Source of the DNA: Candidatus Lustribacter sp.
GTDB taxonomy: Bacteria > Vulcanimicrobiota > Vulcanimicrobiia > Vulcanimicrobiales > Vulcanimicrobiaceae
Assembly (NCBI GenBank): GCA_965277805.1
Contig: OZ255842.1
Span: forward strand, 2,560,001-2,624,000
Length of the DNA: 64,000 nucleotides
Direction: 5' to 3'
Numbering within the stretch: the stretch's first letter is position 1; each line of letters starts with the position of its first letter. The translations under genes were made by a program, and so were the position numbers. Shown piece after piece: positions 14,376-40,279 of the stretch. The notes below the pieces were generated by a model. The model was not told the origin of the DNA and did no database searches. It saw only the letters and a list, made by a program, of their open reading frames with translations.

Positions 14376-15098
14376 TTACGGCAGCTCGGCCAACTTGTAG
14401 CCCGCGCCATAGACCGTCAGCACGTAGCGCGGGTGTTGCGGATCAACCTCGATCTTGGAGCGCAAATTTGCGATATGCCGGTCGAGCGTCCGGTCAAACA
14501 CCTCGCCGCCGTCGATCGAGATCAGCTCGATGAGATGATCGCGCGTAAACACTTGACCCGGGTGGTCAGCGAAGATGCAGAGCAAACGATATTCGGTCGG
14601 CGTCAACTTGAGCGGCGTACCGTCGCGTGCGACCTCGTGTGCGGTGAGGTCGATCGTTATTTCGCCGACGCGGCGCAGATCGTGAACGGCGCGAGGCGGG
14701 GCGCTACTGCCGGCGGCCGGCGATGCGCTGAAGCGACGCAACACCGTCTTCACCCGCGCGACGACCTCACGCGGGCTGTAGGGCTTGCTCACGTAGTCGT
14801 CGGCCCCCAGCTCGAGTCCGACGACGCGATCGACCTCCGTCACGCGGGCCGTGAGCATGATGACGGGCACGTCGAGTTGCGCCCGGATCTCGCGGAACGC
14901 CTCGAGCCCGGATAGCACCGGCAGATTCAGGTCGAGCAGCACTAAGTCGGGGCGCTCGGCCAGTGCGAGGTCGACAGCGGCCCGTCCGTCGGCTGCCCGC
15001 AGCACGCGGAATCCCTCATCCCGAAGATAGACTTCGAGTACGTCGAGCAGCGCCGGTTCATCGTCGACCACGAGCACCGTTGCCGTGCGCGCCGTCAT
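14376..15098 (-). CDS. OmpR-family response regulator
   Basis: VVDDE, LLDLNLP, GADDYVSKPY, winged helix LTVYGAGYK; ATG overlaps kinase stop. Confidence 0.95.
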   Translation of the reverse strand: MTARTATVLVVDDEPALLDVLEVYLRDEGFRVLRAADGRAAVDLALAERPDLVLLDLNLPVLSGLEAFREIRAQLDVPVIMLTARVTEVDRVVGLELGADDYVSKPYSPREVVARVKTVLRRFSASPAAGSSAPPRAVHDLRRVGEITIDLTAHEVARDGTPLKLTPTEYRLLCIFADHPGQVFTRDHLIELISIDGGEVFDRTLDRHIANLRSKIEVDPQHPRYVLTVYGAGYKLAELP

Positions 15099-17519: not shown

Positions 17520-17764
17520 CGCCGGTCGTGGAGCGCGATCTGATCCTTGCGCCGCTGGCCTCGGCAGACCGCGTTCTCCGCGCCTTCTCCGCATCGCACC
17601 CGGAGTTTGACGGCCAGTTGGTCGTCGAGGCCGATGCCAGATTCAACGGTTTCTGGCTGATCCTCACCGGCGCATTTGCCAGACCCACCGCTCGCGCTCT
17701 CCTGCGAGAAATTCGCGTCGAAATTGAAGCCGACGCCCGCACACAAAACTCGAAAGGTTCCTAA
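17516..17764 (+). CDS. Small hypothetical protein (82 aa)
   Basis: ATGA overlap with doxX stop; ends 2 nt before adhP start. Confidence 0.55.
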   Translation: MTPVVERDLILAPLASADRVLRAFSASHPEFDGQLVVEADARFNGFWLILTGAFARPTARALLREIRVEIEADARTQNSKGS

Positions 17765-17765
17765 C

Positions 17766-18848
17766 ATGTCAACCATCACGATCGAACGCCGCGGCGCGCA
17801 GCCTGCGAATATCGGATACCTTCCGAAAACGATGAAGGCCGCCGTCGTGCGCGCTTTCGGTCAACCGCTCGCAATTGCGGAAGTTCCAACACCCGTTCCC
17901 GGCCCCGGCGAAGTGCTGGTAGAAGTGACGGCCTGCGGGGTTTGCCATACCGACGTTCATGCGGCCGACGGCGATTGGCCGGTTAAACCGCAGCCGCCGT
18001 TCATTCCCGGACACGAGACCGCCGGACGCGTTGTCGCCTTGGGTGTGGGAGTCGACGACTTCAAGCTGGGTGACGCGATCGGCATCGCCTGGCTCCACGA
18101 CGCATGCGGCAAGTGCGAGTTCTGCATCACCGGCTGGGAAACGTTGTGCGCCACGCAGCACGACAGCGGCTACAGCGTCGACGGCGGCTTCGCGCAATAC
18201 GCAATCGCTTCGGCGGCCTATGCCGCGCACTTGAGCGCGGACGTCGATTTCTACCAGATGGCGCCGATCTTATGTGCGGGCGTCACCACCTATAAGGGAC
18301 TCAAACAAACCGAAGCGCGACCGGGGCAGTGGGTCGCGATCTCGGGCCTCGGCGGCTTGGGTCACGTTGCCGTGCAGTACGCCAAGGCGATGGGGCTAAA
18401 CGTCGTCGGCCTCGACGTGACGCCGGAAAAACTTGCGCTGGCGCGCTCGGTGGGCGCCGACGTGACGGTGAACGCGCTCGACGCCGATGCGGCCGCGCAA
18501 GTCCTCGAGGCGACCCACGGCGGCGCGCACGGCGTGCTGGTCACGGCGCCTTCGCCGCCGGCCTTCTCGCAAGCCATCGCGTTCGCGCGCAGCAAGGGAA
18601 CAATTGCGCTGATCGGTCTCCCGCCGGGCGGATTTCAGACGCCGATCTTCGACGTCGTGCTCAAGGGCTTGACGATTCGCGGTTCGATCGTCGGCACGCG
18701 CAAGGATCTCGAGGAAGCGGTGGCCTTCGCGAGCGCCGGAAAAGTCCGGGCCGATATCCACAAAGCGAAACTCGAAGACATCAACCGGATCTTCACCGAC
18801 CTCAAGGCCGGCAAAGTCGAGGGCCGTATGGTCCTCGATCTGGCCTAA
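17766..18848 (+). CDS. adhP: Zinc-dependent alcohol dehydrogenase, propanol-preferring type
   Basis: CGVCHTD, PGHE, CGKCEFC...C, LCAGVTTYK, GLGGLG. Confidence 0.93.
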   Translation: MSTITIERRGAQPANIGYLPKTMKAAVVRAFGQPLAIAEVPTPVPGPGEVLVEVTACGVCHTDVHAADGDWPVKPQPPFIPGHETAGRVVALGVGVDDFKLGDAIGIAWLHDACGKCEFCITGWETLCATQHDSGYSVDGGFAQYAIASAAYAAHLSADVDFYQMAPILCAGVTTYKGLKQTEARPGQWVAISGLGGLGHVAVQYAKAMGLNVVGLDVTPEKLALARSVGADVTVNALDADAAAQVLEATHGGAHGVLVTAPSPPAFSQAIAFARSKGTIALIGLPPGGFQTPIFDVVLKGLTIRGSIVGTRKDLEEAVAFASAGKVRADIHKAKLEDINRIFTDLKAGKVEGRMVLDLA

Positions 18849-20548
18849 GTTTGAATGCCGGCGCGTGCGCTGAGCTTGCGGCCGATGATGGCGACGCCGA
18901 TTGCCATCGCGGCCGAGATCACGCCGACGACCGCACCGTTCTCGATCGAACCGTTGGTCGCGTAATCGAGCACCAAGAGCGAGAGCGGACGCGTCGTCGG
19001 CGTGGCGAGCAAGATCATCGTGCTGATGTCTTTCACGCAGCCGACGAACACGAACAGCGCGACCGTCACCGCGGTCGGTGAGAGCAGCGGCAAGAGCACG
19101 CGCCGGTAGAGTTCCCACCAGCCCGCACCCGAGGTGAACGCCGCTTCTTCGAGCTCGAGCCCGATGCGCGCGATGCCGTTCTTCATCAGGTTCACGCCGC
19201 CGGGCATTTCCTTGAAGAGCATCGCGATGACGAGACCGGCCACCGAACCGTAGAGAACGTTGAGGATCGGGAAGCCGAGGTAGATCCACAAGAGCGAGAG
19301 GCTCAGCAAGATGCCGGGAATCGACCACGGCAGCCACGCCGCGACGTCGAGAACCTGCCGGCCCGCGGCTTTCGTGCGCAAGATGATGTAGGCGATCAGC
19401 GAGAAGCAGATCACGCCCGCGATCGCCGTGAAAATACCCAGCAGCAGCGTCGTCGTGAACGATGAGAGGAACACCGGATCGTGCAGCACGGTGTTCCAGT
19501 GGCTCGTCGTAAAGCCGAAGCCGCCGGCCGCGTTGGTCACGCCGAAGATCTCCATGAACGAGCCGACGACGAGCGTGATCGTCGGAACGAGCACCGCGAG
19601 GCCGGCAAAGCCGCCGCAGAAGAGCGTGGCCGGCCAACGCCAGCGGCCGAGATCGACTGCCGGCGCGGCGGCGAGCTTCCCGGTCAGCGTCGCATAGGAG
19701 CGCCCGCGGACGACACGCTGGTACCACAGCGCCAGCGCGATCAGCAAGATCACGAACGGAACGCTCAGCGCCATCGCCGGCGCGTAGCGCGGCGGCTCGT
19801 ACACGACCAGTTCCTGAATCTTGGTCGAGAACACGCGGATGCCGGCCGGAACGCCGAGGAACAACTCGACCTCGAACCCCTCGAGGCTGCGGATCAGCGC
19901 GATGATGCCGGCCATCGTCAACGCCGGCGCGAGCAGCGGCAACACGACGCGCCGGAACGACTCCATGAGGCTCGCGCCCGACATGCGCGCGCTCTCTTCG
20001 AGCACGGGATTCAGGCCGCGGAATGCCGGTCCCAGCAGCAGCACGATCGCGGGCACCGTCGTCGTCACGAGATGCACCCACGTGATGCCGGTATAGGAGT
20101 AGATGTTGAACGGGCCATGCTGCAGTCCGAACACCGGCTGTAAGATGCGGTTGATCCAGCCCGACTTCGGATCGAGCAACAGCGCCCACGCCATCGCCAT
20201 CGGCAGCGTGGGCAAAAAGAACGCGGTCCAAATCAGGAACTCGATCGAGCGACGCCAGCGCACGTTGGTGCGAATCACGAGCCACGCCAGCACGCTGCCG
20301 AGCAAGAGCGCGATCGGCACGCGCATGAGCACGAGTAAGAACGTATTTGCGATCGCCTGCCACACCGACGCGGTTGAAAACGCGCTCGTCCAGCCGCTGG
20401 TTCCCCAAACGGTCGGATTGCCCGGCAGCGAGGTACGGAAGCTGCCGACCAGCGTGATGATCACGGGCGCGATCGCAAATGCGGTCACGATGATGACGGG
20501 CAGCGTCAACAGCGCGTTCGTGCGCTGCCCTTCGGTGGTTCTTACCAC
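18845..20548 (-). CDS. ABC transporter permease (FbpB/AfuB-type, duplicated domain)
   Basis: Two EAA loops (LEESARMSGA, LEEAAFTSGA); many TM helices; GTG at 20548 overlapping upstream stop. Confidence 0.9.
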   Translation of the reverse strand: MVRTTEGQRTNALLTLPVIIVTAFAIAPVIITLVGSFRTSLPGNPTVWGTSGWTSAFSTASVWQAIANTFLLVLMRVPIALLLGSVLAWLVIRTNVRWRRSIEFLIWTAFFLPTLPMAMAWALLLDPKSGWINRILQPVFGLQHGPFNIYSYTGITWVHLVTTTVPAIVLLLGPAFRGLNPVLEESARMSGASLMESFRRVVLPLLAPALTMAGIIALIRSLEGFEVELFLGVPAGIRVFSTKIQELVVYEPPRYAPAMALSVPFVILLIALALWYQRVVRGRSYATLTGKLAAAPAVDLGRWRWPATLFCGGFAGLAVLVPTITLVVGSFMEIFGVTNAAGGFGFTTSHWNTVLHDPVFLSSFTTTLLLGIFTAIAGVICFSLIAYIILRTKAAGRQVLDVAAWLPWSIPGILLSLSLLWIYLGFPILNVLYGSVAGLVIAMLFKEMPGGVNLMKNGIARIGLELEEAAFTSGAGWWELYRRVLLPLLSPTAVTVALFVFVGCVKDISTMILLATPTTRPLSLLVLDYATNGSIENGAVVGVISAAMAIGVAIIGRKLSARAGIQT

Positions 20549-21741
20549 GTGCCGACGGCGTTCGCGGGGGACTGGTAGCTGAGCCTCAGTTCGCGGCGCT
20601 GGGCCGCCGACTCGAGAATCGCCACGCAAACCTCGAGCGTGGCCCGGCCCCAGGCGGCATCGAGAAACGGCTCGCGCTCACCGGCCAGCGCGTCGGCCAG
20701 TTCCATCAGCTCCGCCGCGCCGCGCAGATAGCCCGCACCGCAGGCGAGTTCGCGCCGGCCGTTGCGGTCGTAAACGTACACGCCGTCGGGCGATTGGCGC
20801 ACGACGCCGCGTTCGCAATGCACGATGGTTAGGCCGAAGAAGGGTGGTTTGCGCAACGAACGTTTGTCTTCGCCGCCGTCACGGCCGCGCCCGTACGGAT
20901 CGCCGGCCTGTTGGAAACGCCACTTCTCCTCGGGCGACATCGGCGCGCGGCGTTCGGCCGGCCGCACCGAGCCCGCGTCGAGCGTGCGGTAACCGCTTTC
21001 ACCGATGCCCCAGGTCAAATCTACGATGTCGAAATACCCCTGCGCGTTGAAGACGAGCGTTGCCGCCGCGCCGTCGTCGAACGTCAGCAGCGCGGTGTAG
21101 TCGGATTCGGTCGCGGGCGAACCCGCCTCGCGCCGCGCCGTCACCGCGCGCACGCTGCTCACCGGGCTGCCGGCGAGGTAACGCACGATATCGATTTGGT
21201 GCGGAGCCTGACGAAACACCGGACCCGTGCCGAGATCGGTGCGTTCTTCAGCCGGAGTGCGCGGCCGGATCAGCCAGTCGTTGAAGTTCCACGTATTGAT
21301 CTGCGTGACGCGGCCGAGCTCGCCGCTCTTGATGACCTCTCGCATGCGCCGCAATACCGAATAGTAGATCTTCGAGTGCCCCTGGACGTACTTCACGCTG
21401 GCGGCCTTAACCGCCGACACGATCGCGTTGCACTCATCAATCGTCGTCGCCATCGGCTTCTCGCACACGACGTGCTTGCCGTGGTTCGCCGCCAGCACCG
21501 CATGCTTCGCGTGAAACTCGTTCGGCGTCGCGATCCAAACAACGTCGACATCGTCGCACGCCGCGAGCGCTTCGACCGAATCGAACAGGTGCACGCCGGG
21601 ATGCCGCGTGCCGAACGCGCGCAGGGCGTCGGCGCGCACGTCGGCGACGGCCGTGAGCCGGACGGTATCGGCGATCGCGCCGATATTCGGCAGCACCTGC
21701 TCTGCCGCGATGCCGATACCGGCGATGCCGAGACGCAGCAC
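20542..21741 (-). CDS. Gfo/Idh/MocA oxidoreductase, cis-dihydrodiol dehydrogenase-like
   Basis: GIAGIG Rossmann motif, ATPNEFH, VCEKPMA, FRQAPHQIDIVR; adjacent to Rieske oxygenase. Confidence 0.85.
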   Translation of the reverse strand: MLRLGIAGIGIAAEQVLPNIGAIADTVRLTAVADVRADALRAFGTRHPGVHLFDSVEALAACDDVDVVWIATPNEFHAKHAVLAANHGKHVVCEKPMATTIDECNAIVSAVKAASVKYVQGHSKIYYSVLRRMREVIKSGELGRVTQINTWNFNDWLIRPRTPAEERTDLGTGPVFRQAPHQIDIVRYLAGSPVSSVRAVTARREAGSPATESDYTALLTFDDGAAATLVFNAQGYFDIVDLTWGIGESGYRTLDAGSVRPAERRAPMSPEEKWRFQQAGDPYGRGRDGGEDKRSLRKPPFFGLTIVHCERGVVRQSPDGVYVYDRNGRRELACGAGYLRGAAELMELADALAGEREPFLDAAWGRATLEVCVAILESAAQRRELRLSYQSPANAVGTW

Positions 21742-21743
21742 CG

Positions 21744-22913
21744 CTACGAGGTCTTTGCTGCGCCGCTACCGACCGCTTCGAGGCGGTTGAGGCTGTGCGT
21801 GGAGAACTCGATGATCTCGTTCTTGGCCGGATCGCGCAGGATAGCCATCGGTTCGCCGCCGGCCTCGACGATGGCGATCTGCTCGTCGAGCAGTTTCCGT
21901 AACATCACGATGCCGACGTCGGTCACGCCGAGATGCTCTTGCGAGCGGTCGTAGATTGCGCCCTGCGTTTCCCACGCCATGCGATCTTGGCTGTTGAAGC
22001 TGTCGAGCGCGTACTCGCCGTCGGGACCTTTGTCGTCGGGCATGTACTGCATCGGCACGACCGCCTGCGGCGGTTCCTCGAGCCCGGTGTCGTTCGGCTG
22101 GAACTGCATCACGATGATCCGCGTGCTGGTGTCGTCGATCGGCACGCGCCAATGCTGGCGCTCGTTGCGGCCTTCGGGAATGCGCAGGATGTTCGGGAAG
22201 ATCAACGGCGGACGGATCTCTTCGCCCGGATGATCGCCGCCGTAGAACAGCGTCTTCGTAATGCCCCACTCGCAGAGTGAGAAGTCGTACTTCACGATCG
22301 GCCGGTAGTAGTACGCGGCCGACTCCCACTTGATCCCCTTCTGCGCCATCGTGTGACCGTGCAGATAGTAGGTGTGGGTCGTGTCGGCGGTGTTCTCTTG
22401 CGCTTGCAGCCAGTTACACGTGAGGTCCGGCCGGATCTCGATCAGGCGCGTGCCGTCCTTGCGCACGAGCGTGTCCCAGCGGGGCAAGAGCGGCGCCGGC
22501 AGCGGACCCATATAGACGAAGAGCAAACCGCCGAGTTCTTGCACCGGATAAGCGCGCTGACGCACGCGGTCCTTGAACGTGCTGTCCTTCGGTTCGAAGG
22601 GCTGCTCGACGCAACGGCCGTCGCGCTCGAACTTCCAGCCGTGGTAGGCGCAGCGGATCGCGCTGCCTTCCAGAAAACCGTAGTACAGCGAGCAGCCGCG
22701 GTGCGTGCAGTGTTCGGTCACGCAACCGAAGTTGCCGTCGTCGCCGCGGTACACGACCAGGTCCTCGCCCATCACCTTGATGCGCTTCTTCGGCCGCTCG
22801 TCGGTGAAGTCGCAGGCCGGCCACAAGGCCTGCCAGTAGCGGCGCAACAGTTGACCGCCGGGCGTATTTGCGCCGGTTTGGGTGAGGCGCGCGTTCTTCT
22901 CCGCTGACAGCAT
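21744..22913 (-). CDS. Rieske non-heme iron oxygenase alpha subunit (phthalate 4,5-dioxygenase/LigX-like)
   Basis: CTH...CAYHGW Rieske motif; EN..D..H....H and QD mononuclear Fe ligands; GGQLLRRYWQ N-terminus. Confidence 0.93.
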   Translation of the reverse strand: MLSAEKNARLTQTGANTPGGQLLRRYWQALWPACDFTDERPKKRIKVMGEDLVVYRGDDGNFGCVTEHCTHRGCSLYYGFLEGSAIRCAYHGWKFERDGRCVEQPFEPKDSTFKDRVRQRAYPVQELGGLLFVYMGPLPAPLLPRWDTLVRKDGTRLIEIRPDLTCNWLQAQENTADTTHTYYLHGHTMAQKGIKWESAAYYYRPIVKYDFSLCEWGITKTLFYGGDHPGEEIRPPLIFPNILRIPEGRNERQHWRVPIDDTSTRIIVMQFQPNDTGLEEPPQAVVPMQYMPDDKGPDGEYALDSFNSQDRMAWETQGAIYDRSQEHLGVTDVGIVMLRKLLDEQIAIVEAGGEPMAILRDPAKNEIIEFSTHSLNRLEAVGSGAAKTS

Positions 22914-22916
22914 CGT

Positions 22917-23792
22917 CTAGACCGGCGCGGTGACGCGCGCCCCGAAGAACGCGAGCGCGATATCGTTGAAGCGATCCGACTCGTCGTTCTGCGCTTGATG
23001 GCCCGAGTTCTCGAGCATCTCGAACGTGACGTTGGGCAACATCTTCTGCAGCGTGTCGGCGAACTCGGGCGGCGCGAAACTGTCCTTGGCGCCCCACACC
23101 ATGTGCATCGGGATCGTGAGCTGCGGCAAACGGTGCTTCAGCTCGAAACGCTGCCATTCGTTGGGATCGGTCTTGAGCGAGTTGCGATACTGCCCTTGCA
23201 GCCTGTGGACTTTGTCGTGGCCCGGCAAGGCGGCCATCTGCACGCGATCGGCGATCAGTTCGTCGGTGATCTTGCTATGATCGTGAACGATGATCTCCAT
23301 GAAGCTGCGCATCGCCTCGGGCGTGCCGTCGTAAGCTTGGAGTTTCTTCATGCCGCCCATCTGGGCGTCGTTGCGCTCGAGCCCCATGGCGAGCGCGATG
23401 CTGCCGCTGCTGATCATGAGCAGCTTCTTGACGCGCTTGGGCTGATCGACGGTCAATTTGGCCGCCATGTACGCACCGCGCGAATTCCCGCAGAGATAGA
23501 CCTTATCCAGACACAATGCGTCGAGAAAGCCCAGCAGGTGATCGACGGAATCTTGATCGCTGCAGCTTTCGGTGGGTTTGTCGGTCAGACCGAATCCCAG
23601 CGTATCGAGCGCGTACACGCGAAAGTGTTTCGCGAGCACCGGGATCGTTTGCCGCCAACCGGCCCAACCGTAGGCACCCGGACCGGCACCGTGCACGAAC
23701 ACGATCGGCTCACCGCTGCCGGCCTCGACGTAATGGGTTTTGATCCCGCGCACATCGACAAACGATGAGAGCACGCCCTCGGGCAACTGCAT
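22917..23792 (-). CDS. Alpha/beta hydrolase, meta-cleavage-product (C-C) hydrolase-like
   Basis: HGAGPG oxyanion loop, GNSRGA nucleophile elbow, WGAKD, SGHQAQ. Confidence 0.85.
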   Translation of the reverse strand: MQLPEGVLSSFVDVRGIKTHYVEAGSGEPIVFVHGAGPGAYGWAGWRQTIPVLAKHFRVYALDTLGFGLTDKPTESCSDQDSVDHLLGFLDALCLDKVYLCGNSRGAYMAAKLTVDQPKRVKKLLMISSGSIALAMGLERNDAQMGGMKKLQAYDGTPEAMRSFMEIIVHDHSKITDELIADRVQMAALPGHDKVHRLQGQYRNSLKTDPNEWQRFELKHRLPQLTIPMHMVWGAKDSFAPPEFADTLQKMLPNVTFEMLENSGHQAQNDESDRFNDIALAFFGARVTAPV

Positions 23793-23905
23793 AGAACTGG
23801 GTCCTTTCGTCGAAGGGGGTCAATTCGGCGCGACGAAACCGGTCCGGTCCGTGATAACCTAAATCGCCTAAGCAGTTTTCGCGGCGGTAGAAAGGCACCC
23901 TCCAA

Positions 23906-25027
23906 ATGTCCGAGCTTCAGTCATTGAACCGTCTGATGAACCGTCGCGCTGCCATCGCGGGCACTGGTGCCGCGCTGCTCGCGGCGGCAGCAAGCCGCCC
24001 CGCGTTTGCTCAAGCCGGCGCGATGACCGCGCTCGTTAACGCTGCGAAAGCTGAAGGCGCCGTCGTGGTCGACGGTCCACCGATCGATGCGACGCGTGAC
24101 GTGCTCGTCAGCGGCTTTCAAAAAGCCTACGGCATCCCGGTGACCTACATCAGCAGCGGAACGTCGGCCAGCGGTGCGCGCGTGCGCTCCGAACGCGCCG
24201 CCGGCAAGTACCTGCTCGACGTGTTCATCAGCGGCAGCGACACACCGGTGCTGACGTTTCTGCCCGGCGGCTGGCTCGATCGCATCGAGCCGATCCTCGT
24301 CTCGCCCGAAGTGATCAACAAGCGCAACTGGAAAGACGGACATCTCTGGTACGCGGATCCGAACAACACGATTTTGCGCGTGCTCTCGAACGTCGTCCCC
24401 GAAATGGCCATCAACACGAAGATGATCAAGCGCGGCGAGATCACCAAATGGAAAGACTTGCTCGAGCCCAAGTGGCAGGGGAAGTATGTGGTGAAGGACC
24501 CGGCCAGTTCCGGCGCCGGTAATTCGCTGACCAGCTACTTCTATATCGAGTTCGGTGCCGACTTCGTGAAGAAGTTCTATCAAGAGCAGAAGCCGGTGTT
24601 TTCGAACAATGCGCGCCAAGCGGCGCAATGGCTCGCGCAAGGCAACTATCCGGTCACCATCGGCACCGACATCGCGGAGCTGATGCGCTTCCAGCAACAG
24701 GGCTACCCGATCGAACCCATCTTCCCGACCGATGCGCCGAGCGTGCTCACCGGCAGCTGGGGTCTCGTCTGCCTCATGAACAAAGCACCGCACTCCAACG
24801 CCGCCAAATTGTTCATCAACTGGCTCGCCGGCACGAGCGCGCAAGCCGCCTTCGCCCCATCGACGCAATCGCTCAGCCTGCGCACCGACGTGCAGTACGA
24901 GAAAGACTTGCCGCCGTTCATCTTTCCGCAAAAGGGGACCAAGTACTTGGACACCTACGACTACAAATACATCACCGAGCAGCGTAACAGCGCCAGTGAC
25001 AAAGTCCGCGAGCTGCTCGGCGAATGA
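23906..25027 (+). CDS. ABC substrate-binding protein (FbpA/AfuA-like), paralog 1
   Basis: RRAAIAG Tat-like signal; APHSNAAKLFINWL motif. Confidence 0.88.
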   Translation: MSELQSLNRLMNRRAAIAGTGAALLAAAASRPAFAQAGAMTALVNAAKAEGAVVVDGPPIDATRDVLVSGFQKAYGIPVTYISSGTSASGARVRSERAAGKYLLDVFISGSDTPVLTFLPGGWLDRIEPILVSPEVINKRNWKDGHLWYADPNNTILRVLSNVVPEMAINTKMIKRGEITKWKDLLEPKWQGKYVVKDPASSGAGNSLTSYFYIEFGADFVKKFYQEQKPVFSNNARQAAQWLAQGNYPVTIGTDIAELMRFQQQGYPIEPIFPTDAPSVLTGSWGLVCLMNKAPHSNAAKLFINWLAGTSAQAAFAPSTQSLSLRTDVQYEKDLPPFIFPQKGTKYLDTYDYKYITEQRNSASDKVRELLGE

Positions 25028-26184
25028 CGCAGCAAGCAACGAAACCCGCGCGGAAGATCAACCAGCCGGCGTATCAAAAGTGGATGGACGCGCAAGAGAT
25101 TCCGATTCACCGCGGTTACGGCATGCACGACGTGCGCGTGCTCGAGCGTAAGCCATGGAAGCTCACCGGCACTCCCGGCGCGTTCATCGATCTCGTCGGC
25201 ATGGAGGGCTTCTCCGGCATGCACGTGGTGGAGATTCCGCCCGGCGGCGCCATCACGAAGCAGCGTCACCTCTATCAGCAGCTGATCTGCATCCTCGAGG
25301 GCCACGGTACGGCCGAAGTCTGGCTCGATGAAGCTCCCGACAAAAAGCTCACGTTTGAGTGGGGACCGTGGAGCCTCTTCTCGCCGCCGGCCAACTCATC
25401 GTACCGGCTCTACAACGTCGGCAATACGCCGGTGATCTATCTCGGCGTCAACGATGCGCCGATGATGATCGACCTCTTTCACAACCTCGACTTCATCTTC
25501 AACAACCCCTACGTGTTCCGCGATCGCTTCAACGGTGCCGACGCCGAATATTTCACCCGGGAAGAACGGATTCTCGAAGGCTCCGGCGTGATGTGGCAGA
25601 CGAACTTCATCGACAACGTGAGCGAGGCGCTGGTCGACGCGCAAGAAGCGAAGGGCGCAGGCGTCAAGATCACCGTGTTCGACATGGCGCAGAACTCGTT
25701 CGCCGGTCATCTCACCGAGTGGCCCGTCGGCCGCTATCACAAGGCGCATCACCATCAGGGCGGCGCGATCTTGCTGATCGCGCGCTCGGAGGGCTACAGC
25801 TTGATGTGGCCTCAGGAATTGGGCGTCCGGCCGTACGAAAACCATTTCGAAGATCAGATCGTGCGGCTCGACTGGGGCTTGTACTCCGTGTTCTGCCCGC
25901 CGACGAAGTGGTTCCACCAGCACTTCAACACCGGCAACGAAACGGCGCGGCAGTTGGCCTTCCGTCCCGGCGGCAGCTCGAACAATCCGACGGGCTTCCG
26001 CCGTTCGGGCACGCGCGTCGTGAACGGCAAGCTCGGTGTGTACGTCAGCTACCGCGAGGGCGGCACGCTGATCGAGTATGAAGACGAGGATCCGCGGATC
26101 AAAACCGACTACGAGAAGATCCTCGGCGACGCCGGCATCGAGTCGAAGATGCCCGCCTTCAACTACAACACCGACGTGCGATGA
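25024..26184 (+). CDS. Bicupin protein of unknown activity
   Basis: Cupin 1: EIPPGG...RHLYQQLICILEGHG; cupin 2: KAHHH...WFHQHFNTG. Confidence 0.85.
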   Translation: MTQQATKPARKINQPAYQKWMDAQEIPIHRGYGMHDVRVLERKPWKLTGTPGAFIDLVGMEGFSGMHVVEIPPGGAITKQRHLYQQLICILEGHGTAEVWLDEAPDKKLTFEWGPWSLFSPPANSSYRLYNVGNTPVIYLGVNDAPMMIDLFHNLDFIFNNPYVFRDRFNGADAEYFTREERILEGSGVMWQTNFIDNVSEALVDAQEAKGAGVKITVFDMAQNSFAGHLTEWPVGRYHKAHHHQGGAILLIARSEGYSLMWPQELGVRPYENHFEDQIVRLDWGLYSVFCPPTKWFHQHFNTGNETARQLAFRPGGSSNNPTGFRRSGTRVVNGKLGVYVSYREGGTLIEYEDEDPRIKTDYEKILGDAGIESKMPAFNYNTDVR

Positions 26185-27269
26185 TCTCGATCCACGGTCT
26201 CGTTAAACGCTACGCGGGCCGTGATATCACCCGCAACGCCGTCAACGGCATCTCGTTCGAGGTGCCCGACGGCCAGCTGTTCACGTTGCTCGGACCGAGC
26301 GGCTGCGGCAAGACGACGACGCTGCGGATGATCGCTGGCCTCGAGCGGCCCGATGCGGGCGAGATCAGCATCGCCGGCAAGCACGTTTACGACGCGAAGC
26401 AGAACATCGCGGTACCGGCCAACAAACGGCCGATCGGCATGGTTTTCCAATCTTATGCGGTGTGGCCGCACATGACGGTGTTCGAGAACGTCTCGTTCCC
26501 GCTGACCGTCGGCAAGAACAAACCGGCCAAAGACGTCGTGCGCGAAAAAACCGAACGCGCGCTCGAACTCGTGGGCTTGGCGGAGTACGCGTCGCGCTCG
26601 GCAACCGCGCTCTCCGGCGGCCAGCAGCAACGCGTCGCTTTGGCGCGCGCGCTCGTGCGCGAACCGGAGATCCTGCTGCTCGACGAACCGCTCAGCAACC
26701 TCGATGCGCAGTTGCGCGAACGGATGCGCGAAGAGATCCGCGAGGTCCAGCAAAAACTCGGCATCACGGCCGTCTACGTTACCCACGATCAAAACGAGGC
26801 GCTGGCCATCTCCGACTGCATCATGCTGATGGAGCAGGGCGAGATCGTCGAACTCGGCGAGCCGCAGCAGATCTACCGTTCGCCGCGTTCGGCCTTCACC
26901 GCCACGTTCGTCGGCGTGGCCAACGAGCTCGCCGGAACCGTCGAGCGCACCAGCGGCGCGACGAACATCGTGACCTCGCACGGCAGCGTCAGCGGCGTTG
27001 CGGGTAACGACCTCACTCACGGACAGAGCGTGCAGCTCTTTCTGCGCCCGGAAGACTTCGTGCTGCACCGCGACCGCCCGGCTAAGGACGTGTGGACCGG
27101 AACGGTGTCGTTCTGCATCTATCAAGGTGACTGCTGGGACTATCACGTTGAGTCGGCCGGTACGCTGCTGCGCGTGCGCGTGCACAAAGAGAAGGCGGGC
27201 CTCAAGCGCGGCGACGTCGTGTTCCTCGAACCCGATCCGAACGCCGCCGTCGTCATGCTCGCGCCCTAA
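26181..27269 (+). CDS. ABC transporter ATP-binding protein (PotA/FbpC type, TOBE domain)
   Basis: GPSGCGKTT, LSGGQQQRVALARAL, DEPLSNLDA, YVTHDQ. Confidence 0.95.
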   Translation: MISIHGLVKRYAGRDITRNAVNGISFEVPDGQLFTLLGPSGCGKTTTLRMIAGLERPDAGEISIAGKHVYDAKQNIAVPANKRPIGMVFQSYAVWPHMTVFENVSFPLTVGKNKPAKDVVREKTERALELVGLAEYASRSATALSGGQQQRVALARALVREPEILLLDEPLSNLDAQLRERMREEIREVQQKLGITAVYVTHDQNEALAISDCIMLMEQGEIVELGEPQQIYRSPRSAFTATFVGVANELAGTVERTSGATNIVTSHGSVSGVAGNDLTHGQSVQLFLRPEDFVLHRDRPAKDVWTGTVSFCIYQGDCWDYHVESAGTLLRVRVHKEKAGLKRGDVVFLEPDPNAAVVMLAP

Positions 27270-27277
27270 CGGCGCCG

Positions 27278-28819
27278 ATGTATCCATACACCTGGACGCC
27301 GCCGGCAACGCTACGGCCGCCGATGTGGCGGCTGCACGAAGATGCGATGCCGCACGAACACCTCAGCGACGAGGAAAAGGCCACGCTGACCGATGCGGTC
27401 TGGCGCCTCGACAACGTCGAGTTCACCACGGTCGGCATCGATGTCGGCAGCTCGACCTCACACCTGATGTTCTCCCGCGTGCACCTGCAGCGCCAAGCGC
27501 ACCAGCTCTCGAGCCGCTTCGTCGTCATCGAACGCAGCACGCTCTGGTCGTCGCCGATCCGGCTCACGCCGTTCCTCGATGACGACACGATCGACGCCGC
27601 GCAACTCGCAACGTTCATCGACGACGCCTATCGCAGCGCGGGCCTCTCCCGCGACGCCGTCGACACCGGCGCCGTCATCCTTACCGGCGAAGCCGTCAAG
27701 CGCAAAAATGCCGCGGCCATCGCGGCGCTGTTCGCAAGCGACGCCGGCAAGTTCGTCTGCGCGTCGGCCGGGCACCATATGGAGTGCGTGCTGGCCGCGC
27801 ACGGTTCGAGCGCGGCCGCGCTCTCGCAAAGCACCGGCAAGACCGTGCTCAACTGCGATATCGGCGGCGGAACGACGAAGCTCGGACTCTGCAGCGGCGG
27901 CCACGTGATCGCAACGTGCGCGTTCGCCGTCGGCGGGCGGCTGATCGCGTTCGACGAGACCCGCGCGGTCGCGCGGCTCGACGATCCGGCCGCGACGGCA
28001 GCACGCGCGTGCAACGTCGCGCTCGCCGTCGGCAAAGTTCCCGCGCCGGAAGACATCGCGGCGATCGTCGACGCGATGGCCCGCACGGTCGCCGGTTACA
28101 TCCGGCGCGACCCGCCGTCCGGGCTCGCAGGCGAACTGCTGCTCACGCAGCCGCTCACCGGATCGCTGCCCGAACTGCTAACGTTCTCGGGCGGGGTGTC
28201 GGAGTACATCTACGGCCGCGAATCGCGCACGTTCGGCGACGTCGCGCTGCCGCTGGCGCGCGCCGTGCGCACCGCCTGCGCGGAACTCCCGCTCGAACTC
28301 GTCGATCCGGGCGCGGGCATTCGCGCCACCGCCATCGGCGTCTCGCAATTCACGGTGCAGGTCAGCGGACGCACGATTTTCCTCGGCACCGTCGCGCTGC
28401 CGCTGCGCAACTTGCCGGTCGTCGCACCGCACCTGCACACCGGCGGTGACATTCATCCGGACATCGTTGCCAAGGCGATCGAGCTGGCGCGCGAACGGCT
28501 CGACGTCGAGCGCGGCGCCGCGCATGCGATCGCGGTGAGCTTTCGCGGCACGCCGAACTACGAACGGCTCACGGCGCTCGCCACCGGCATCGCCAAGAGC
28601 GTCCGCGATTCGGGCGGGGAACCGCTCGTGCTCATCATCGACGGCGACATCGGCCAGTCGCTGGGCCGGCTACTGCAACACGAACTGCACGTCGAACGCC
28701 CGCTGCTCTGCATCGATGCGCTCGAACTCGGCGAATTCGATTTCGTCGACATCGGCAAACCAGTCGAACTCGCACGCGGCGTCCCCGTGGTAGTAAAATC
28801 GCTGCTCTTCGGCCGTTAG
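27278..28819 (+). CDS. eutA: EutA-like reactivating factor (ASKHA ATPase)
   Basis: VGIDVGSSTSHLMFS, TGAVILTGEA, FVCASAG...E..LAAHGS, DIGGGTTK, FSGGV, IRATAIG, DFVDIG...VPVVVKSLLF. Confidence 0.88.
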   Translation: MYPYTWTPPATLRPPMWRLHEDAMPHEHLSDEEKATLTDAVWRLDNVEFTTVGIDVGSSTSHLMFSRVHLQRQAHQLSSRFVVIERSTLWSSPIRLTPFLDDDTIDAAQLATFIDDAYRSAGLSRDAVDTGAVILTGEAVKRKNAAAIAALFASDAGKFVCASAGHHMECVLAAHGSSAAALSQSTGKTVLNCDIGGGTTKLGLCSGGHVIATCAFAVGGRLIAFDETRAVARLDDPAATAARACNVALAVGKVPAPEDIAAIVDAMARTVAGYIRRDPPSGLAGELLLTQPLTGSLPELLTFSGGVSEYIYGRESRTFGDVALPLARAVRTACAELPLELVDPGAGIRATAIGVSQFTVQVSGRTIFLGTVALPLRNLPVVAPHLHTGGDIHPDIVAKAIELARERLDVERGAAHAIAVSFRGTPNYERLTALATGIAKSVRDSGGEPLVLIIDGDIGQSLGRLLQHELHVERPLLCIDALELGEFDFVDIGKPVELARGVPVVVKSLLFGR

Positions 28820-28849
28820 CGGCGTTGAGAGACAACGGCCCCCCTCGCT

Positions 28850-28893
28850 GTCATCCCGAGCGAAGCGCCGCATGGCGCGAAGTCGAGGGACAG
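28850..28893 (+). repeat. Palindromic REP-like element, copy 2, with inserted hairpin
   Basis: GTCATCCCGAGC-GAAGCGCCGCATGGCGCGAA-GTCGAGGGACAG; same ends as copy 1. Confidence 0.75.
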
Positions 28894-28920
28894 AGATAAC
28901 CAAGGGCCAACGCCAGGGCA

Positions 28921-30036
28921 ATGCCCCTCCATCGGCCCACGCAGCCAATGACCCGTCGCGCCGCAATCGCCGGCGCAAGCGCCGCACTTACCGCCGCTGC
29001 AATCCGGACGGCAGACGCGCAATCAGCAGCAATGACATCCCTGATCGCCGCGGCCAAGGCCGAAGGCAGCGTCGTGGTCGACGGTCCTCCGCTCGACTCA
29101 GTGCGCGAAGTGATCGGACCCGGCTTCCAACGCGCCTACGGCATCCCGGTGACGTACATCAGCGGCGGCGGCTCGGCCACGGCGGCTCGCGTGCGCGCCG
29201 AACGCGCCTCGGGCAAATATCTGCTCGACGTGTTCATCAGCGGCCCCGACACGCCCACGATCACGTTTCTGCCCAGCGGCTGGCTCGATAAGATCGAACC
29301 GGTGCTCGTCGCGCGCGACGTCGTCGACAAACGCAATTGGAAAGACGGGCACCTCTGGTATGAAGACGAGGGCCACACGATCTTGCGCGTGCTGCAGTAC
29401 GTGGTGCCCGAGCTCGCCGTCAACACGAAGTTCGTCCAGCCGAAACAGGTCGCGACGTGGAAGTCGCTGCTCGAACCGAAGTGGCAAGGCAAAATGGTGG
29501 CCAAGGATCCGGCGAGTTCGGGCGGTTCGGGCGCATCGCTGACCAGTTACTTCTATCTCGTCTTCGGCCCGGACTTCGTCAAGAAGCTCTACGTCGAGCA
29601 GAAGCCGATGCTCTCGCGCGACGCGCGTCAGGCGGCGCAGTGGCTGGCTGACGGATCGTATCCGATCCTGATCGGCCCCGACACGACCGCGATGGATCAA
29701 TTCGTCAAACTCGGCTATCCGCTGCAGCCGGTGTTCCCGACCGACGGGCCGAGCGTGCTGACCGGCGGCTGGGGGCTCATCGGCCTGCTCAACAAAGCGC
29801 AGCATCCGAATGCCGCGAAGCTGTTCATCAATTGGCTCGCGGGGCGTGAAGCGCAAACCGCGTATGCCAAAGCCACGCAATCGCTCAGCCTGCGCACCGA
29901 CATCCACTACGTCGACATGCCCGGCTACTTGTTTCCGCAGAAGGGGACGAAGTATATGGATACCTACGACTTCAAGTTCGTCACCGAACAGCGCGACCCG
30001 GCACTGGCCAAAGCGCGCGAGCTGCTCGGCGAGTGA
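28921..30036 (+). CDS. ABC substrate-binding protein, paralog 2
   Basis: Long identical blocks with 23906 ORF (GKYLLDVFISG, NWKDGHLWY, QSLSLRTD). Confidence 0.88.
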   Translation: MPLHRPTQPMTRRAAIAGASAALTAAAIRTADAQSAAMTSLIAAAKAEGSVVVDGPPLDSVREVIGPGFQRAYGIPVTYISGGGSATAARVRAERASGKYLLDVFISGPDTPTITFLPSGWLDKIEPVLVARDVVDKRNWKDGHLWYEDEGHTILRVLQYVVPELAVNTKFVQPKQVATWKSLLEPKWQGKMVAKDPASSGGSGASLTSYFYLVFGPDFVKKLYVEQKPMLSRDARQAAQWLADGSYPILIGPDTTAMDQFVKLGYPLQPVFPTDGPSVLTGGWGLIGLLNKAQHPNAAKLFINWLAGREAQTAYAKATQSLSLRTDIHYVDMPGYLFPQKGTKYMDTYDFKFVTEQRDPALAKARELLGE

Positions 30037-31118
30037 AGCGCCGCGCGGCGATCGCGGGCGCGAGTGCGGCGCTGGTTGCAACAGCCGCAACGCCGGCGCA
30101 CGCACAATCGGCAGCGCTCGCTACGCTCGTGAGCGCGGCGCAAGCCGAAGGCAGCGTGGTCGTGGATGGGCCGCCGAACGACATCGCGCGCCAAGGGCTC
30201 TTGAGCGGCTTCCAGCGCGCATACGGCATTCCGATTTCGTACGTTACGAGCGGGTCTTCATCGTCCAGCGCGCGCATTCGCGCGGAGCGCGTCGCCGGCA
30301 AGTACGTGCTCGACGTCTTCTTGAGCGGCGCCGATGCCGCGTGCCTGACGTTTCTCCCCAGCGGCTGGCTCGATCGCATCGAACCGGTCCTCGTAGCGCC
30401 CGACGTACTGGACACTCGCAAGTGGCGCGACGGCCACCTTTGGTACCAAGACGACGCACACACCATTTTGCACGTGCTCTCAACCGTCGCGCCGGGGCTG
30501 GCCGTCAACACCAAGCTTCTGCGACGCGGCGAAGCCACGACGTGGAAGTCGCTGCTCGATCCGAAATGGCAAGGCAAAATCATCGCCAAGGATCCGCTGA
30601 CGTTGGGCGCCGGCTCGCAAATGCCGAGCTACTTCTTCCTGACGTTCGGGCCGGATTACGTGAAGACGCTCTACCAGACGCAGCAACCCGTGCTCTCACG
30701 CAACGCACGCCAGGCGATGCAGTGGTTAGCCGAAGGCAGCTACCCGATTCTGATCGGTCCGGACACATCCGAACTGATGGCGTTCAAGAAACTCGGCTAT
30801 CCCGTGGAGCCCGTGCTGCCCACGGACGGACCCAGCATCATCAACGCCGGTTGGGGACTCGTCTGCCTCATGAACAAAGCGCCCCATCCGAATGCGGCCA
30901 AGCTGTTCGTCAACTGGGTAGCCGGCCGCGCAGGCCAAACAATCTATGCTAACGCAACCCAATCGGCGAGTTTGCGGACCGACGTGACATACGACGGGCT
31001 GCCGGCGTATCTGTTCCCCCGGCGAGGCGCCAACTACATGGATACCTCCACGTTGAAATTCGTCACGGAACAGCATGAAGCGGCGATGAACAAAGTGCAA
31101 GAACTACTCGGAAAATAA
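30033..31118 (+). CDS. ABC substrate-binding protein, paralog 3
   Basis: RRAAIAG signal; DGHLWY, APHPNAAKLF; GTGA overlap with paralog 2. Confidence 0.88.
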   Translation: MKRRAAIAGASAALVATAATPAHAQSAALATLVSAAQAEGSVVVDGPPNDIARQGLLSGFQRAYGIPISYVTSGSSSSSARIRAERVAGKYVLDVFLSGADAACLTFLPSGWLDRIEPVLVAPDVLDTRKWRDGHLWYQDDAHTILHVLSTVAPGLAVNTKLLRRGEATTWKSLLDPKWQGKIIAKDPLTLGAGSQMPSYFFLTFGPDYVKTLYQTQQPVLSRNARQAMQWLAEGSYPILIGPDTSELMAFKKLGYPVEPVLPTDGPSIINAGWGLVCLMNKAPHPNAAKLFVNWVAGRAGQTIYANATQSASLRTDVTYDGLPAYLFPRRGANYMDTSTLKFVTEQHEAAMNKVQELLGK

Positions 31119-31131
31119 AGGTACGGTAAAC

Positions 31132-31908
31132 GTGAGTCTTCTGGACGGCAAAACGATCCTCGTCACCGGCGTCGCCAATCGCTGGTCGATCGCCAGCGGC
31201 ATCGCGCGACGGTTGCACGCACACGGTGCACGCCTGATCCTGACCTATCAGGGCGAGCGGGTCGAGGATTCAGTCCGCAAGACCGCAGCCGAACTTGGCG
31301 GCGGTCCCGTGTTCGAAGCGGACGTCACCAACGACGCCTCGCTCGATGCGCTCGCAGCCTCGATCGGAAAGATCGACGGTATCGTGCATTCGATCGCTTT
31401 CGTGAAGAAAGAAGACCTCAGCGGCAAGGTGTACGACACCTCGCGCGATGGGTTCGCCATGGCGATGGACATCAGCTCGTACTCGCTGATCGCACTGGTC
31501 GGCCATCTCAAGGATAACCTCAACGACGGCGGCTCCATCATGGCGCTGACCTATCTCGGCGGTACGCAGATCGTGCCGAACTACAACGTCGCCGGCATCG
31601 CGAAGGCCGCGCTCGAATCGATCGTGCGCTACCTCGCCTTCGATCTCGGCGAACGCGGCATCCGCGTCAACGCGATCTCGGCCGGCCCGATTTCGACCGC
31701 GTCATCGCGTCAAGTCGCCGGCTTCTCGGCCATGCCCGCCAAGGTCGCGGCCGCCGCGCCGCTCAAGCGCACGATCACGGCCGACGACGTCGGCAACTGC
31801 GCGGTCTATCTTGCCAGCGATCTTTCGAGCCAGGTCACGGCCGACGTCCACTTCGTCGACGCCGGCTACCACGCGATGGGCATGTATCCGGAGGCACCGA
31901 AAGCCTGA
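31132..31908 (+). CDS. fabI: Enoyl-ACP reductase FabI
   Basis: GVANRWSIA, HSIAF, YNVAGIAKAALE, VNAISAGP. Confidence 0.95.
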   Translation: MSLLDGKTILVTGVANRWSIASGIARRLHAHGARLILTYQGERVEDSVRKTAAELGGGPVFEADVTNDASLDALAASIGKIDGIVHSIAFVKKEDLSGKVYDTSRDGFAMAMDISSYSLIALVGHLKDNLNDGGSIMALTYLGGTQIVPNYNVAGIAKAALESIVRYLAFDLGERGIRVNAISAGPISTASSRQVAGFSAMPAKVAAAAPLKRTITADDVGNCAVYLASDLSSQVTADVHFVDAGYHAMGMYPEAPKA

Positions 31909-39872: not shown

Positions 39873-40279
39873 TCGACGCGCCGATCGATCACGTCGGGAT
39901 CGTCGTCGGCGACCTCGACGAAGCGGTTGCGTTGTATACGCAGACGCTCGGGTTTACCGAAACGCATCGCGAGATCATTGCGGATCAGGGCATCGAACTG
40001 ATCGGGCTGCGCGCGGGCGATGCGACGATCGAGCTGTTGCGCCCCCTCGATGAGAACTCGCCGATCGCGAAATTCCGCGGCACTGCTGCGACGAAGCTCC
40101 ATCATATGGCGTATCGAGTCACCGACATCGCGGTCGAGCTTGCGCGGCTCAAAGCGCAAGGTGTGCGGCTAATCGACGAGCGGCCGCGGCTTGGCGCTAA
40201 CGGCAACACTATCGCGTTTTTGCACCCGAGCTCGACCGGCGGCGTGTTGATCGAACTCTGCGAACACCGTGGGGACTAG
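39869..40279 (+). CDS. mce: Methylmalonyl-CoA epimerase
   Basis: IDHVGIVV, IELLRP, LHHMAYRV, IAFLHPSSTGGVLIEL. Confidence 0.9.
   Translation: MIDAPIDHVGIVVGDLDEAVALYTQTLGFTETHREIIADQGIELIGLRAGDATIELLRPLDENSPIAKFRGTAATKLHHMAYRVTDIAVELARLKAQGVRLIDERPRLGANGNTIAFLHPSSTGGVLIELCEHRGD

Follow-up and report, generated by a model that had tools for sequence, protein, structure and literature searches.

The window analyzed here, a stretch of 64,000 nucleotides from contig OZ255842.1 of Candidatus Lustribacter sp., carries ten genes packed tightly into two divergent arms, and among them a gene for an ATPase of the EutA family lies close to a gene for a bicupin, a protein of two cupin barrels. EutA, the only characterized homolog of this ATPase, is the reactivase of ethanolamine ammonia-lyase. 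What does a protein of this family do in a cluster that also encodes an ATP-binding cassette (ABC) importer, a Rieske oxygenase, a Gfo/Idh/MocA dehydrogenase and a hydrolase? An earlier note on this DNA had proposed that the ten genes form one aromatic-catabolism system and that the ATPase serves it. Our analysis gives a different answer: the conserved core is the bicupin together with the EutA-like ATPase, the ten-gene set is specific to its lineage, and the ATPase goes with the bicupin and not with the Rieske pathway. The ATPase is most likely a bicupin-bound, ATP-driven helper of the metal center of its partner.

The linkage between the two genes carries this answer. Relatives of the EutA-like protein were collected from Eremiobacterota, Alpha- and Betaproteobacteria, Gemmatimonas and Streptomyces, which gave 80 loci; 61 of them could be judged, having at least 1.5 kb of sequence on both sides of the EutA-like gene. 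A bicupin gene was located within 500 bp in 49 of the 61 judgeable loci and within 2 kb in 54, across four phyla, and the co-occurrence in other genomes that had been suggested as a check was thereby confirmed. Two more judgeable loci had a bicupin gene within 2.5 kb in the same operon, and five had none; an adjacent bicupin gene was still found in 11 of the 19 loci with shorter flanks. When the neighbors were clustered over all 80 loci, no other family appeared in more than 35, and a Rieske gene accompanied the pair in 8. Because the pair sits in so many loci without a Rieske gene, the EutA-like ATPase is assigned to the bicupin, and the proposal that it serves the Rieske pathway did not hold. 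In a sample of 201 genomes from the order around locus L012, both families occurred in the same three genomes, where they lie next to each other; the sample had been centered on one of the three, so two are independent. Neither family was found in 150 other genomes of the phylum to which the window belongs (bicupin, 0; EutA-like, 0), whereas the host genome has eight bicupin genes and two EutA-like genes.

The complete set of ten genes was common only to Lustribacter-like metagenome-assembled genomes (MAGs), and the idea of one conserved ten-gene system fails outside them. The closest public relatives of the EutA-like protein (84–93% identity) come from four loci of Candidatus Lustribacter or Eremiobacterota MAGs (L001–L004). 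Two of these, L002 and L004, have the same gene order with identities of 71–99%; the arrangement is therefore more than chance. Other companions are found in other lineages. In an alphaproteobacterial locus (L010), Gfo/Idh and reductase genes diverge from a row of Rieske, bicupin and EutA-like genes, and in two Burkholderiales loci (L005 and L008) the pair and a Rieske gene are joined by genes for a major facilitator superfamily (MFS) transporter, a small cupin and an FAD monooxygenase. Two Streptomyces loci (L078 and L079) have, in order, a reductase gene, an ABC transporter of the same type with a permease ortholog (38%), the bicupin gene, a Rieske gene (49%), a PhtC-like gene and the EutA-like gene; an IclR regulator, an FAD monooxygenase and a gene resembling gentisate 1,2-dioxygenase (GDO) follow, and a LigK-like aldolase gene lies upstream. 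The PhtC-like protein of these loci scored 189.7 bits against the 3,4-dihydroxyphthalate decarboxylase model (cut-off, 200). The neighbors of the pair in Xanthobacteraceae (among others a CMD-family protein, a weakly PhtC-like class II aldolase, an NMT1-type solute-binding protein [SBP], and PrpD-like and PaaZ-like proteins) were considered as a guide to the substrate and set aside, since they look like lineage synteny.

The EutA-like protein belongs to the same family and length class as EutA. It matched PF06277 with 375.1 bits over residues 49–511 (model positions 3–474 of 475) and is 34% identical to E. coli K-12 EutA (b2451) over residues 44–511. Both ASKHA nucleotide-binding motifs are kept and were invariant in the alignment. 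E. coli EutA starts at the position of residue 44, and the window protein has an extra N-terminal segment of 43 residues. This segment carries a histidine motif (H20...H26-x-H28) that was invariant in 37 of 37 aligned sequences, is absent from E. coli EutA and is expanded to a histidine-rich run in Streptomyces. The mean predicted local distance difference test score (pLDDT) of the structure model was 81.4, with residues 1–27 under 50. Foldseek searches with the model returned generic ASKHA proteins, the nearest folds being exopolyphosphatases and activators of 2-hydroxyacyl-CoA dehydratases; a diol-dehydratase-reactivase-like match was not among the matches listed, which is no evidence that the folds differ. 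Unlike EutA, the window protein has a bicupin as its fixed neighbor and is not accompanied by EutBC: the EutB family (PF06751) had no match in the host genome, a single contig of 5.53 Mb that is 95% complete, with a positive E. coli control, and E. coli EutB and EutC used as tblastn queries found nothing in the genome or in the 80 loci.

Enzyme-specific helpers are familiar from other systems, such as the diol dehydratase reactivase DdrAB, the ferredoxin XylT, which re-reduces catechol 2,3-dioxygenase, and the histidine-rich nickel chaperones. The likeness lies in a dedicated helper gene that adjoins the gene of the enzyme served and in a flexible, histidine-rich segment. To our knowledge, none of these helpers is a EutA-family ATPase that serves a cupin enzyme.

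The numbers of the two genes are also informative. Besides the ratio of two EutA-like genes to eight bicupin genes in the host, a Gemmatimonas MAG of 3.9 Mb (G154) has 30 bicupin copies, several of them in tandem arrays, and in its locus L009 five bicupin genes in a row are followed by one EutA-like gene. So many bicupins per ATPase gene fit a shared helper better than a fixed subunit.

Some members of the two families were found apart from each other. The second EutA-like gene of the host genome (46% identity; L084:9000–11865, approximately 4.021–4.024 Mb) also encodes the histidine motif. It has no adjoining bicupin gene; the gene toward which it converges is of the Creatinase_N/Peptidase_M24 type (weakly ectoine-hydrolase-like), and MarR, SBP, dienelactone hydrolase and MFS genes are nearby. 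A helper of this kind may have another client enzyme here. In an alphaproteobacterial MAG (G151), the third of its EutA-like genes (contig C24, 147858–149381) had no bicupin match nearby. On the bicupin side, a second paralog (32% identity) straddles the start of the window (positions 1–412, + strand, extending upstream to genome position 2559345) and has no adjoining EutA-like gene. At L085:3578–10187 (approximately 0.164–0.170 Mb), a bicupin paralog and an SBP gene are on one strand, and genes for a single-domain cupin, a Rieske oxygenase and a Gfo/Idh dehydrogenase are on the other.

The bicupin itself is hardly recognized by family models. Its Pfam cupin match is marginal, a single domain with 27.1 bits (cut-off, 27.2), and it matched 0 NCBIfam families, the models for the gentisate/salicylate dioxygenase class (TIGR02272 and the 5-aminosalicylate 1,2-dioxygenase model NF049978) included. 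Among 83 bicupin relatives, NF049978 was matched weakly by 39 (best E value, 4.8e-9) and TIGR02272 by 5. The family is large, with 2753 of 4729 candidates at E ≤0.001 in one search and 1692 representatives at 50% identity in another, and its members carry generic names only. The AlphaFold2 model, built from an 83-row alignment, has a clear two-barrel fold (pLDDT, 96.3; predicted template modeling score, 0.92). VIA-align placed it closest to the GDO 3bu7 (Z 21.5; root-mean-square deviation [rmsd], 3.5; 265 residues aligned), followed by salicylate 1,2-dioxygenase 2phd (Z 20.8) and E. coli GDO 2d40 (Z 20.3); rmsd for these matches was 3.2–3.5 over 246–265 residues. Foldseek against the PDB gave generic bicupins only (TM score, approximately 0.45).

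With the GDO and salicylate 1,2-dioxygenases the window bicupin has in common the fold and a 3-His motif (H-x-H...H-x-H-x-N). Its C-terminal barrel keeps Y238, K240, H242, H244, H298, H300 and N302 in both alignments that were made (A1 and A2), and the four histidines were invariant in A1 and conserved in at least 90% of the sequences in A2. We take H242, H244 and H298 to be the metal ligands, following the usual cupin motif. In hhalign, the C-terminal barrel aligned with the catalytic N-terminal barrel of a GDO-like enzyme (probability, 89%; E value, 2e-6), and the histidine motifs fell on the AHRH...WHDH of that barrel. The differences from the GDO class are an identity of 11–17% and the location of the complete histidine site in the C-terminal barrel, with a single His kept in the N-terminal one. 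We know of no ATPase partner for GDO-class enzymes, a point at which no search was aimed.

A complex of the bicupin with the EutA-like ATPase was modeled with a median ipSAE of 0.73 over three runs, compared with 0.00 for the best of three controls. The runs shared at least 48% of their contacts, and the pLDDT of the partner was at least 85. Of 157 solved complexes, 116 attained the calibration mark that this model passed, as did 2 of 215 mismatched pairs; these counts apply only roughly here, because the alignments were our own. In the modeled interface, the C-terminal alpha/beta domain of the ATPase (residues 365–366, 424–431, 456–465 and 469) contacts the N-terminal barrel of the bicupin (residues 73–134 and 178). 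The helper reading is preferred because of the homology to a reactivase, the histidine tail, the many-to-one gene ratios, the linkage and this complex model taken together.

The remaining enzymes of the cluster are of known kinds, and the resemblance of the Rieske oxygenase and the Gfo/Idh protein to phthalate 4,5-dioxygenase and its dihydrodiol dehydrogenase, proposed in the earlier note, was corroborated. As in the pht, oph and iph pathways, an alpha-only Rieske oxygenase is paired with a Gfo/Idh dehydrogenase, and the best sequence matches of both are from these pathways. The N-terminal 190–215 residues of the oxygenase matched the phthalate 4,5-dioxygenases 7fhr (1.2e-46) and 7fjl (1.5e-41), and the closest chain over the whole length was 9ina (1.2e-41), the isophthalate dioxygenase of Comamonas testosteroni KF1 (J Bacteriol 2025, PMC12445078). 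The Rieske Cys/His motif (CTHRG...CAYHGW) and the mononuclear-iron motif NWLQAQENTADTTHTYYLHG (D-x2-H-x4-H) are intact and align with those of the phthalate and isophthalate dioxygenases. Active-site positions were mapped on a pairwise alignment of low identity, with a chain offset of 23 deduced from four residues that PMC12445078 names. On this mapping, both carboxylate anchors of isophthalate dioxygenase, R234 and H257, are kept (window R234 and H254, respectively), as is the equivalent of I246, and V178, L198 and F249 are replaced by Thr, Ala and Glu, respectively; the Ala also occupies the position of phthalate dioxygenase R207, which corresponds to L198. The anchor pattern points, tentatively, to an anionic substrate held at two anchors.

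The dehydrogenase matched the 4,5-dihydroxyphthalate dehydrogenase 7wzd with 233.3 bits (5e-68; query residues 2–387 on chain residues 7–390), compared with approximately 75 bits or less for sugar and inositol dehydrogenases; it also matched 3moi over its full length. The dioxygenation and dehydrogenation steps are thus well supported by homology. The cluster differs from the phthalate and isophthalate pathways in what it adds, namely the hydrolase, bicupin and EutA-like genes, and in what it leaves out, since the window has no PhtC-type decarboxylase gene and the reductase is encoded far away. The sole gene of the genome that resembles a phthalate dioxygenase reductase is located at 2507336–2508232, approximately 72 kb before the first gene of the cluster and outside the window, and its product shares 41% identity with the reductase encoded in the Streptomyces cluster. 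This one reductase would need to supply no fewer than 14 Rieske oxygenases, the window copy and at least 13 paralogs (tblastn; 39–70% identity). The statement that the locus has no reductase, regulator or classical extradiol dioxygenase is right for the cluster itself; outside it are this reductase-like gene and a two-component pair (14376–16810). Paralog expansion is strong in the host genome: besides the Rieske copies there are 13 Gfo/Idh copies at ≥35% identity (the window copy and 12 others at 35–49%, tblastn), 8 bicupins and 6 close SBPs, with one reductase.

The hydrolase was matched best by C-C hydrolases of the meta-cleavage-product group, with CumD at 1.2e-37, HsaD at 4e-35 and the range for CumD, HsaD, BphD and MhpC spanning 1e-37 to 1e-28; the match to phthalate-monoester (mono(2-ethylhexyl) phthalate, MEHP) hydrolase was weaker (4e-24). 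The NCBIfam scores for HsaD (159.8 bits; cut-off, 400) and BphD (113.9 bits) were both far under cut-off. As in the C-C hydrolases, the GNSxG nucleophile elbow, Asp, His and Arg are present: GNSRG, WGAKD, SGH and adRvq align with CumD and HsaD, and the Ser-His-Asp triad, the elbow and the conserved Arg are retained.

A paralogous operon of the host genome provides a context for the bicupin. At approximately 3.756 Mb (L087:8776–11950), genes for a hydrolase (41%) and a Rieske oxygenase (53%) are followed by one for a LigB-family ring-opening dioxygenase; the operon diverges from a MarR gene, and UbiD-like decarboxylase and FAD hydroxylase genes lie on the other side. In third position, after hydrolase and Rieske genes, that operon thus has a ring-cleavage enzyme, the role proposed for the bicupin in the window. 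With this operon, the GDO-like folds and the 3-His site, the suggestion that the bicupin is the ring-cleavage enzyme is plausible as an inferred step.

The importer has the parts of an Fbp/Afu/PhnS-type system, with a fused double permease, a TOBE-domain ATPase and cluster-D-type binding proteins. It differs from such systems in its three tandem SBPs and in the distribution of its genes over two divergent arms, interleaved with enzyme genes; the split, with the permease leftward and the ATPase and SBPs rightward, is as the earlier note described. PotA, PhnT2 and ferric-type models matched the ABC ATPase with 295–320 bits, all under their cut-offs. SBP1 is 60–67% identical to SBP2 and SBP3, the genome holds six close SBP paralogs (57–70% identity), and the tandem number varies, with one more in loci L001 and L002.

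Taken together, we give roughly an even chance to the following reading: the cluster would serve the importer-fed catabolism of an anionic, phthalate- or isophthalate-like aromatic, with ring cleavage by the bicupin and a EutA-like helper for its metal center. The Fbp/Afu-type importer (fused permease, ATPase and three paralogous binding proteins) would take up the substrate or substrates. The alpha-only Rieske oxygenase, fed by the distant reductase, would dihydroxylate the ring, and the Gfo/Idh dehydrogenase would re-aromatize the cis-diol to a catecholic or hydroxy acid. The bicupin would then open the ring in a GDO-like manner at the 3-His metal center of its C-terminal barrel, and the C-C-type hydrolase would cut the ring-fission product. 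The EutA-like protein, bound to the bicupin, would use ATP to load, exchange or repair the metal center by means of its flexible histidine motif. What the data show is the gene content, the homologies, the motifs that are conserved, the linkage across phyla, the missing EutBC genes and the complex model that passed; we infer the substrate class, the ring cleavage by the bicupin, the hydrolase step and the mechanism of the helper.

Several observations weigh against this reading. No NCBIfam match of any of the ten proteins passes its curated cut-off. The SBPs are nearest to binders of the Fe3+ or phosphate-ester type, which would be uncommon in an uptake system for aromatic acids. By structure, the GDO class leads by a small margin, with oxalate decarboxylase next (Z 19.1 compared with 21.5). 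In the hydrolase, Gly and Gln are found where the aligned CumD and HsaD have a pocket Asn and the Trp after the catalytic His (Asn51 and Trp266 in BphD); of four pocket residues typical of meta-cleavage-product hydrolases, the window protein lacks two. Seven of the eight host bicupin paralogs have no adjacent EutA-like gene, and a helper may therefore not be needed. The modeled interface is away from the C-terminal metal site and excludes the histidine tail, and its conservation was not above random (2122 and 2249 of 10000 random residue sets were equally conserved). Because the Streptomyces cluster has both a GDO-like gene and a decarboxylase gene, the step of the bicupin there is not simply a missing ring cleavage.

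Other explanations account for parts of these data. The tight linkage, the passing complex model and the invariant ATPase motifs would also suit an obligate two-subunit enzyme that spends ATP at each turnover, for example in the (de)carboxylation, phosphorylation or isomerization of a hydroxy-aromatic acid, and the ASKHA fold includes kinases and ATP-coupled activators as well as the nearest folds named above. We consider such an enzyme unlikely: a single ATPase gene goes with many bicupin genes in the host and in Gemmatimonas, the bicupin keeps a complete dioxygenase-type 3-His site, the Streptomyces cluster has a PhtC-like decarboxylase of its own, and EutA is a reactivase. The transporter allows a different division of labor, in which the ABC importer and the EutA-like protein would form an iron or nickel uptake-and-insertion line for the bicupin, with the SBPs binding metal or a chelate and the aromatic entering otherwise. 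Among solved proteins, those nearest to SBP1 carry the annotation of Fe3+ ABC binding proteins (4r72, 2e-10; 8x1a; the 7f6e series). The fused double permease and the TOBE ATPase belong to the Fbp/Afu type, and the genes for the bicupin and the ATPase are intermixed with those of the transporter both here and in Streptomyces. Against this line, the SBP paralogs and their variable tandem number look like diversification for organic ligands, the SBP group includes the pyridoxal-phosphate-binding protein 6wce (5.5e-8 to SBP1), the 4r72 protein is a binder of sugar phosphates and not of iron, and a transporter of this kind is missing from most of the 80 loci. With Fe3+-type binders and a pyridoxal-phosphate binder as nearest relatives, the metal-import reading of the transporter keeps a place among the alternatives, at a low probability.

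A non-aromatic substrate of the inositol, sugar or amine type, with the bicupin as an isomerase, hydrolase or decarboxylase, is very improbable in our estimate. It would explain why the best NCBIfam matches of the dehydrogenase, under cut-off, are inositol 2-dehydrogenase and levoglucosan dehydrogenase and why transporter parts match polyamine and aminoethylphosphonate models, and many bicupins are indeed not oxygenases, among them oxalate decarboxylase and ureidoglycine aminohydrolase (Z 17.2 to the bicupin model). The full-length match of the dehydrogenase to 7wzd far exceeds those to sugar dehydrogenases, however; the Rieske oxygenase is closest to phthalate and isophthalate dioxygenases, and the orthologous clusters have GDO-like, FAD aromatic hydroxylase, PhtC-like and IclR genes. 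Nearly excluded is the reading in which the EutA-like protein truly reactivates some cobalamin-dependent enzyme whose gene lies at another site, with the bicupin as its neighbor by coincidence. The full-length PF06277 match, the identity to E. coli EutA and the name EutA given to its relatives in public sources would favor it, but the protein falls under all four NCBIfam EutA cut-offs (301.7, 247.5, 214.5 and 205.5 bits against 598, 769, 952 and 799, respectively), EutB and EutC are missing as described, and the linkage to the bicupin extends across four phyla.

The ten genes were placed by open reading frame listing and Pfam/NCBIfam scans as the earlier note had listed them, in two divergent, tightly coupled operons (Table 1).

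Table 1. Features of the cluster, in window coordinates
Feature	Position	Strand	Basis
Fused two-domain ABC permease (Fbp/Afu/PhnU/ThiP-type)	18845..20629	-	PF00528 in two stretches; best NCBIfam PhnU2 115 bits, far under cut-off
Gfo/Idh/MocA NAD(P) dehydrogenase, putative cis-dihydrodiol dehydrogenase	20542..21741	-	Pfam; 7wzd match
Alpha-only (phthalate-family) Rieske non-heme-iron oxygenase	21744..22913	-	PF00355 and LigXa_C; 7fhr, 7fjl, 9ina
Alpha/beta-fold serine hydrolase, meta-cleavage-product (C-C) group	22917..23792	-	Pfam; CumD and HsaD matches
Divergent spacer between the arms, 113 bp	23793..23905	none	
Solute-binding protein 1 (SBP_bac_1/8/6/11 type)	23906..25027	+	Pfam; nearest solved chains 4r72, 6wce
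Bicupin, 386 aa, putative ring-cleaving dioxygenase	25024..26184	+	AlphaFold2 model; structural matches
ABC transporter ATPase with C-terminal TOBE domain	26181..27269	+	PF00005 and PF08402
EutA-family ASKHA ATPase, 513 aa, predicted bicupin partner	27278..28819	+	PF06277, 375 bits
Solute-binding protein 2	28921..30036	+	Pfam; paralogy
Solute-binding protein 3	30033..31118	+	Pfam; paralogy

Intergenic gaps in the leftward arm are 3 nt (hydrolase/Rieske) and 2 nt (Rieske/dehydrogenase). The listed TTG start of the permease gives an 88-nt overlap with the dehydrogenase gene, and for that reason the true start is probably downstream. The rightward arm has 4-nt overlaps, one 8-nt gap and 101 nt ahead of SBP2. 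A scan of the spacer for sigma-70-like promoters, which does not extend to the promoter type of this phylum, returned 0 sites with 0.0 expected and so says nothing about promoters here. Among the sequencing runs listed as containing window positions 22900–28900, none was of RNA; four were DNA-type runs of one study, probably from the source sample. The outer flanks are an AdhP-like gene (17676–18848; 352.8 bits, cut-off 344) and a FabI-like gene (31132–31908); the latter is better conserved than the cluster genes in loci L002 and L003. The alcohol dehydrogenase before the permease and the short-chain dehydrogenase/reductase after SBP3 were considered as pathway members and rejected, being AdhP-like and FabI-like, respectively. 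Both look like housekeeping genes, which supports cluster limits of 18845..31118. Farther out are the two-component pair and a ribonucleotide reductase. Base composition gave no sign of horizontal transfer: G+C content of the cluster (0.61–0.66) is similar to its surroundings in a window of approximately 64% G+C, and the only hint of transfer is the patchy distribution, with 0 of 150 other phylum genomes positive. The host is a peat-soil bacterium with a genome (5.5 Mb) far larger than those listed for its family (2.3–4.4 Mb).

Three other groups of genes in the window were recorded. A cell-wall recycling set at 42615–46681 (- strand; G+C, 0.69–0.72) comprises genes for a SIS-domain (MurQ-like) protein, a BadF/BadG-type kinase, AnmK and a beta-lactamase-fold protein. 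The gene at 40276–41754 (- strand), next to methylcitrate-cycle genes, encodes a DUF4127 protein matched over its full length (272.7 bits). At 60299–63056, a type III polyketide synthase gene converges on a gene for an FAD-dependent aromatic hydroxylase.

Our literature search, from whose coverage subscription journals were absent, found no description of the bicupin/EutA-like pair or of a characterized pathway with this gene set, in agreement with the earlier note. The Rieske, dehydrogenase and hydrolase part of the cluster is of known kinds, and the helper-enzyme pair is a variation on the known idea of enzyme-specific activases. A broader claim, that histidine-tailed EutA-family ATPases are a new class of activase or metallochaperone for cupin ring-cleaving dioxygenases, with a single helper for entire families of paralogous bicupins, is possible but on balance doubtful. 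If it is true, the EutA family would gain a second and mechanistically different client, its first outside B12 enzymes. The bicupin family is large, unnamed and expandable, as its copy numbers in the host and in the Gemmatimonas MAG indicate, and it occurs in aromatic-acid clusters of uncultured peat and soil bacteria. Should a EutA-type ATPase be needed for these bicupins to be or remain active, producing them in other hosts or rebuilding pathways, for instance for phthalate or lignin-derived acids, would fail unless the helper were supplied, a hidden expression requirement for a large dioxygenase family in the turnover of soil aromatics, and thousands of "EutA" annotations would be wrong. 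For the organism, the cluster offers a testable route for phthalate-like compounds in Eremiobacterota, a phylum with few cultured members.

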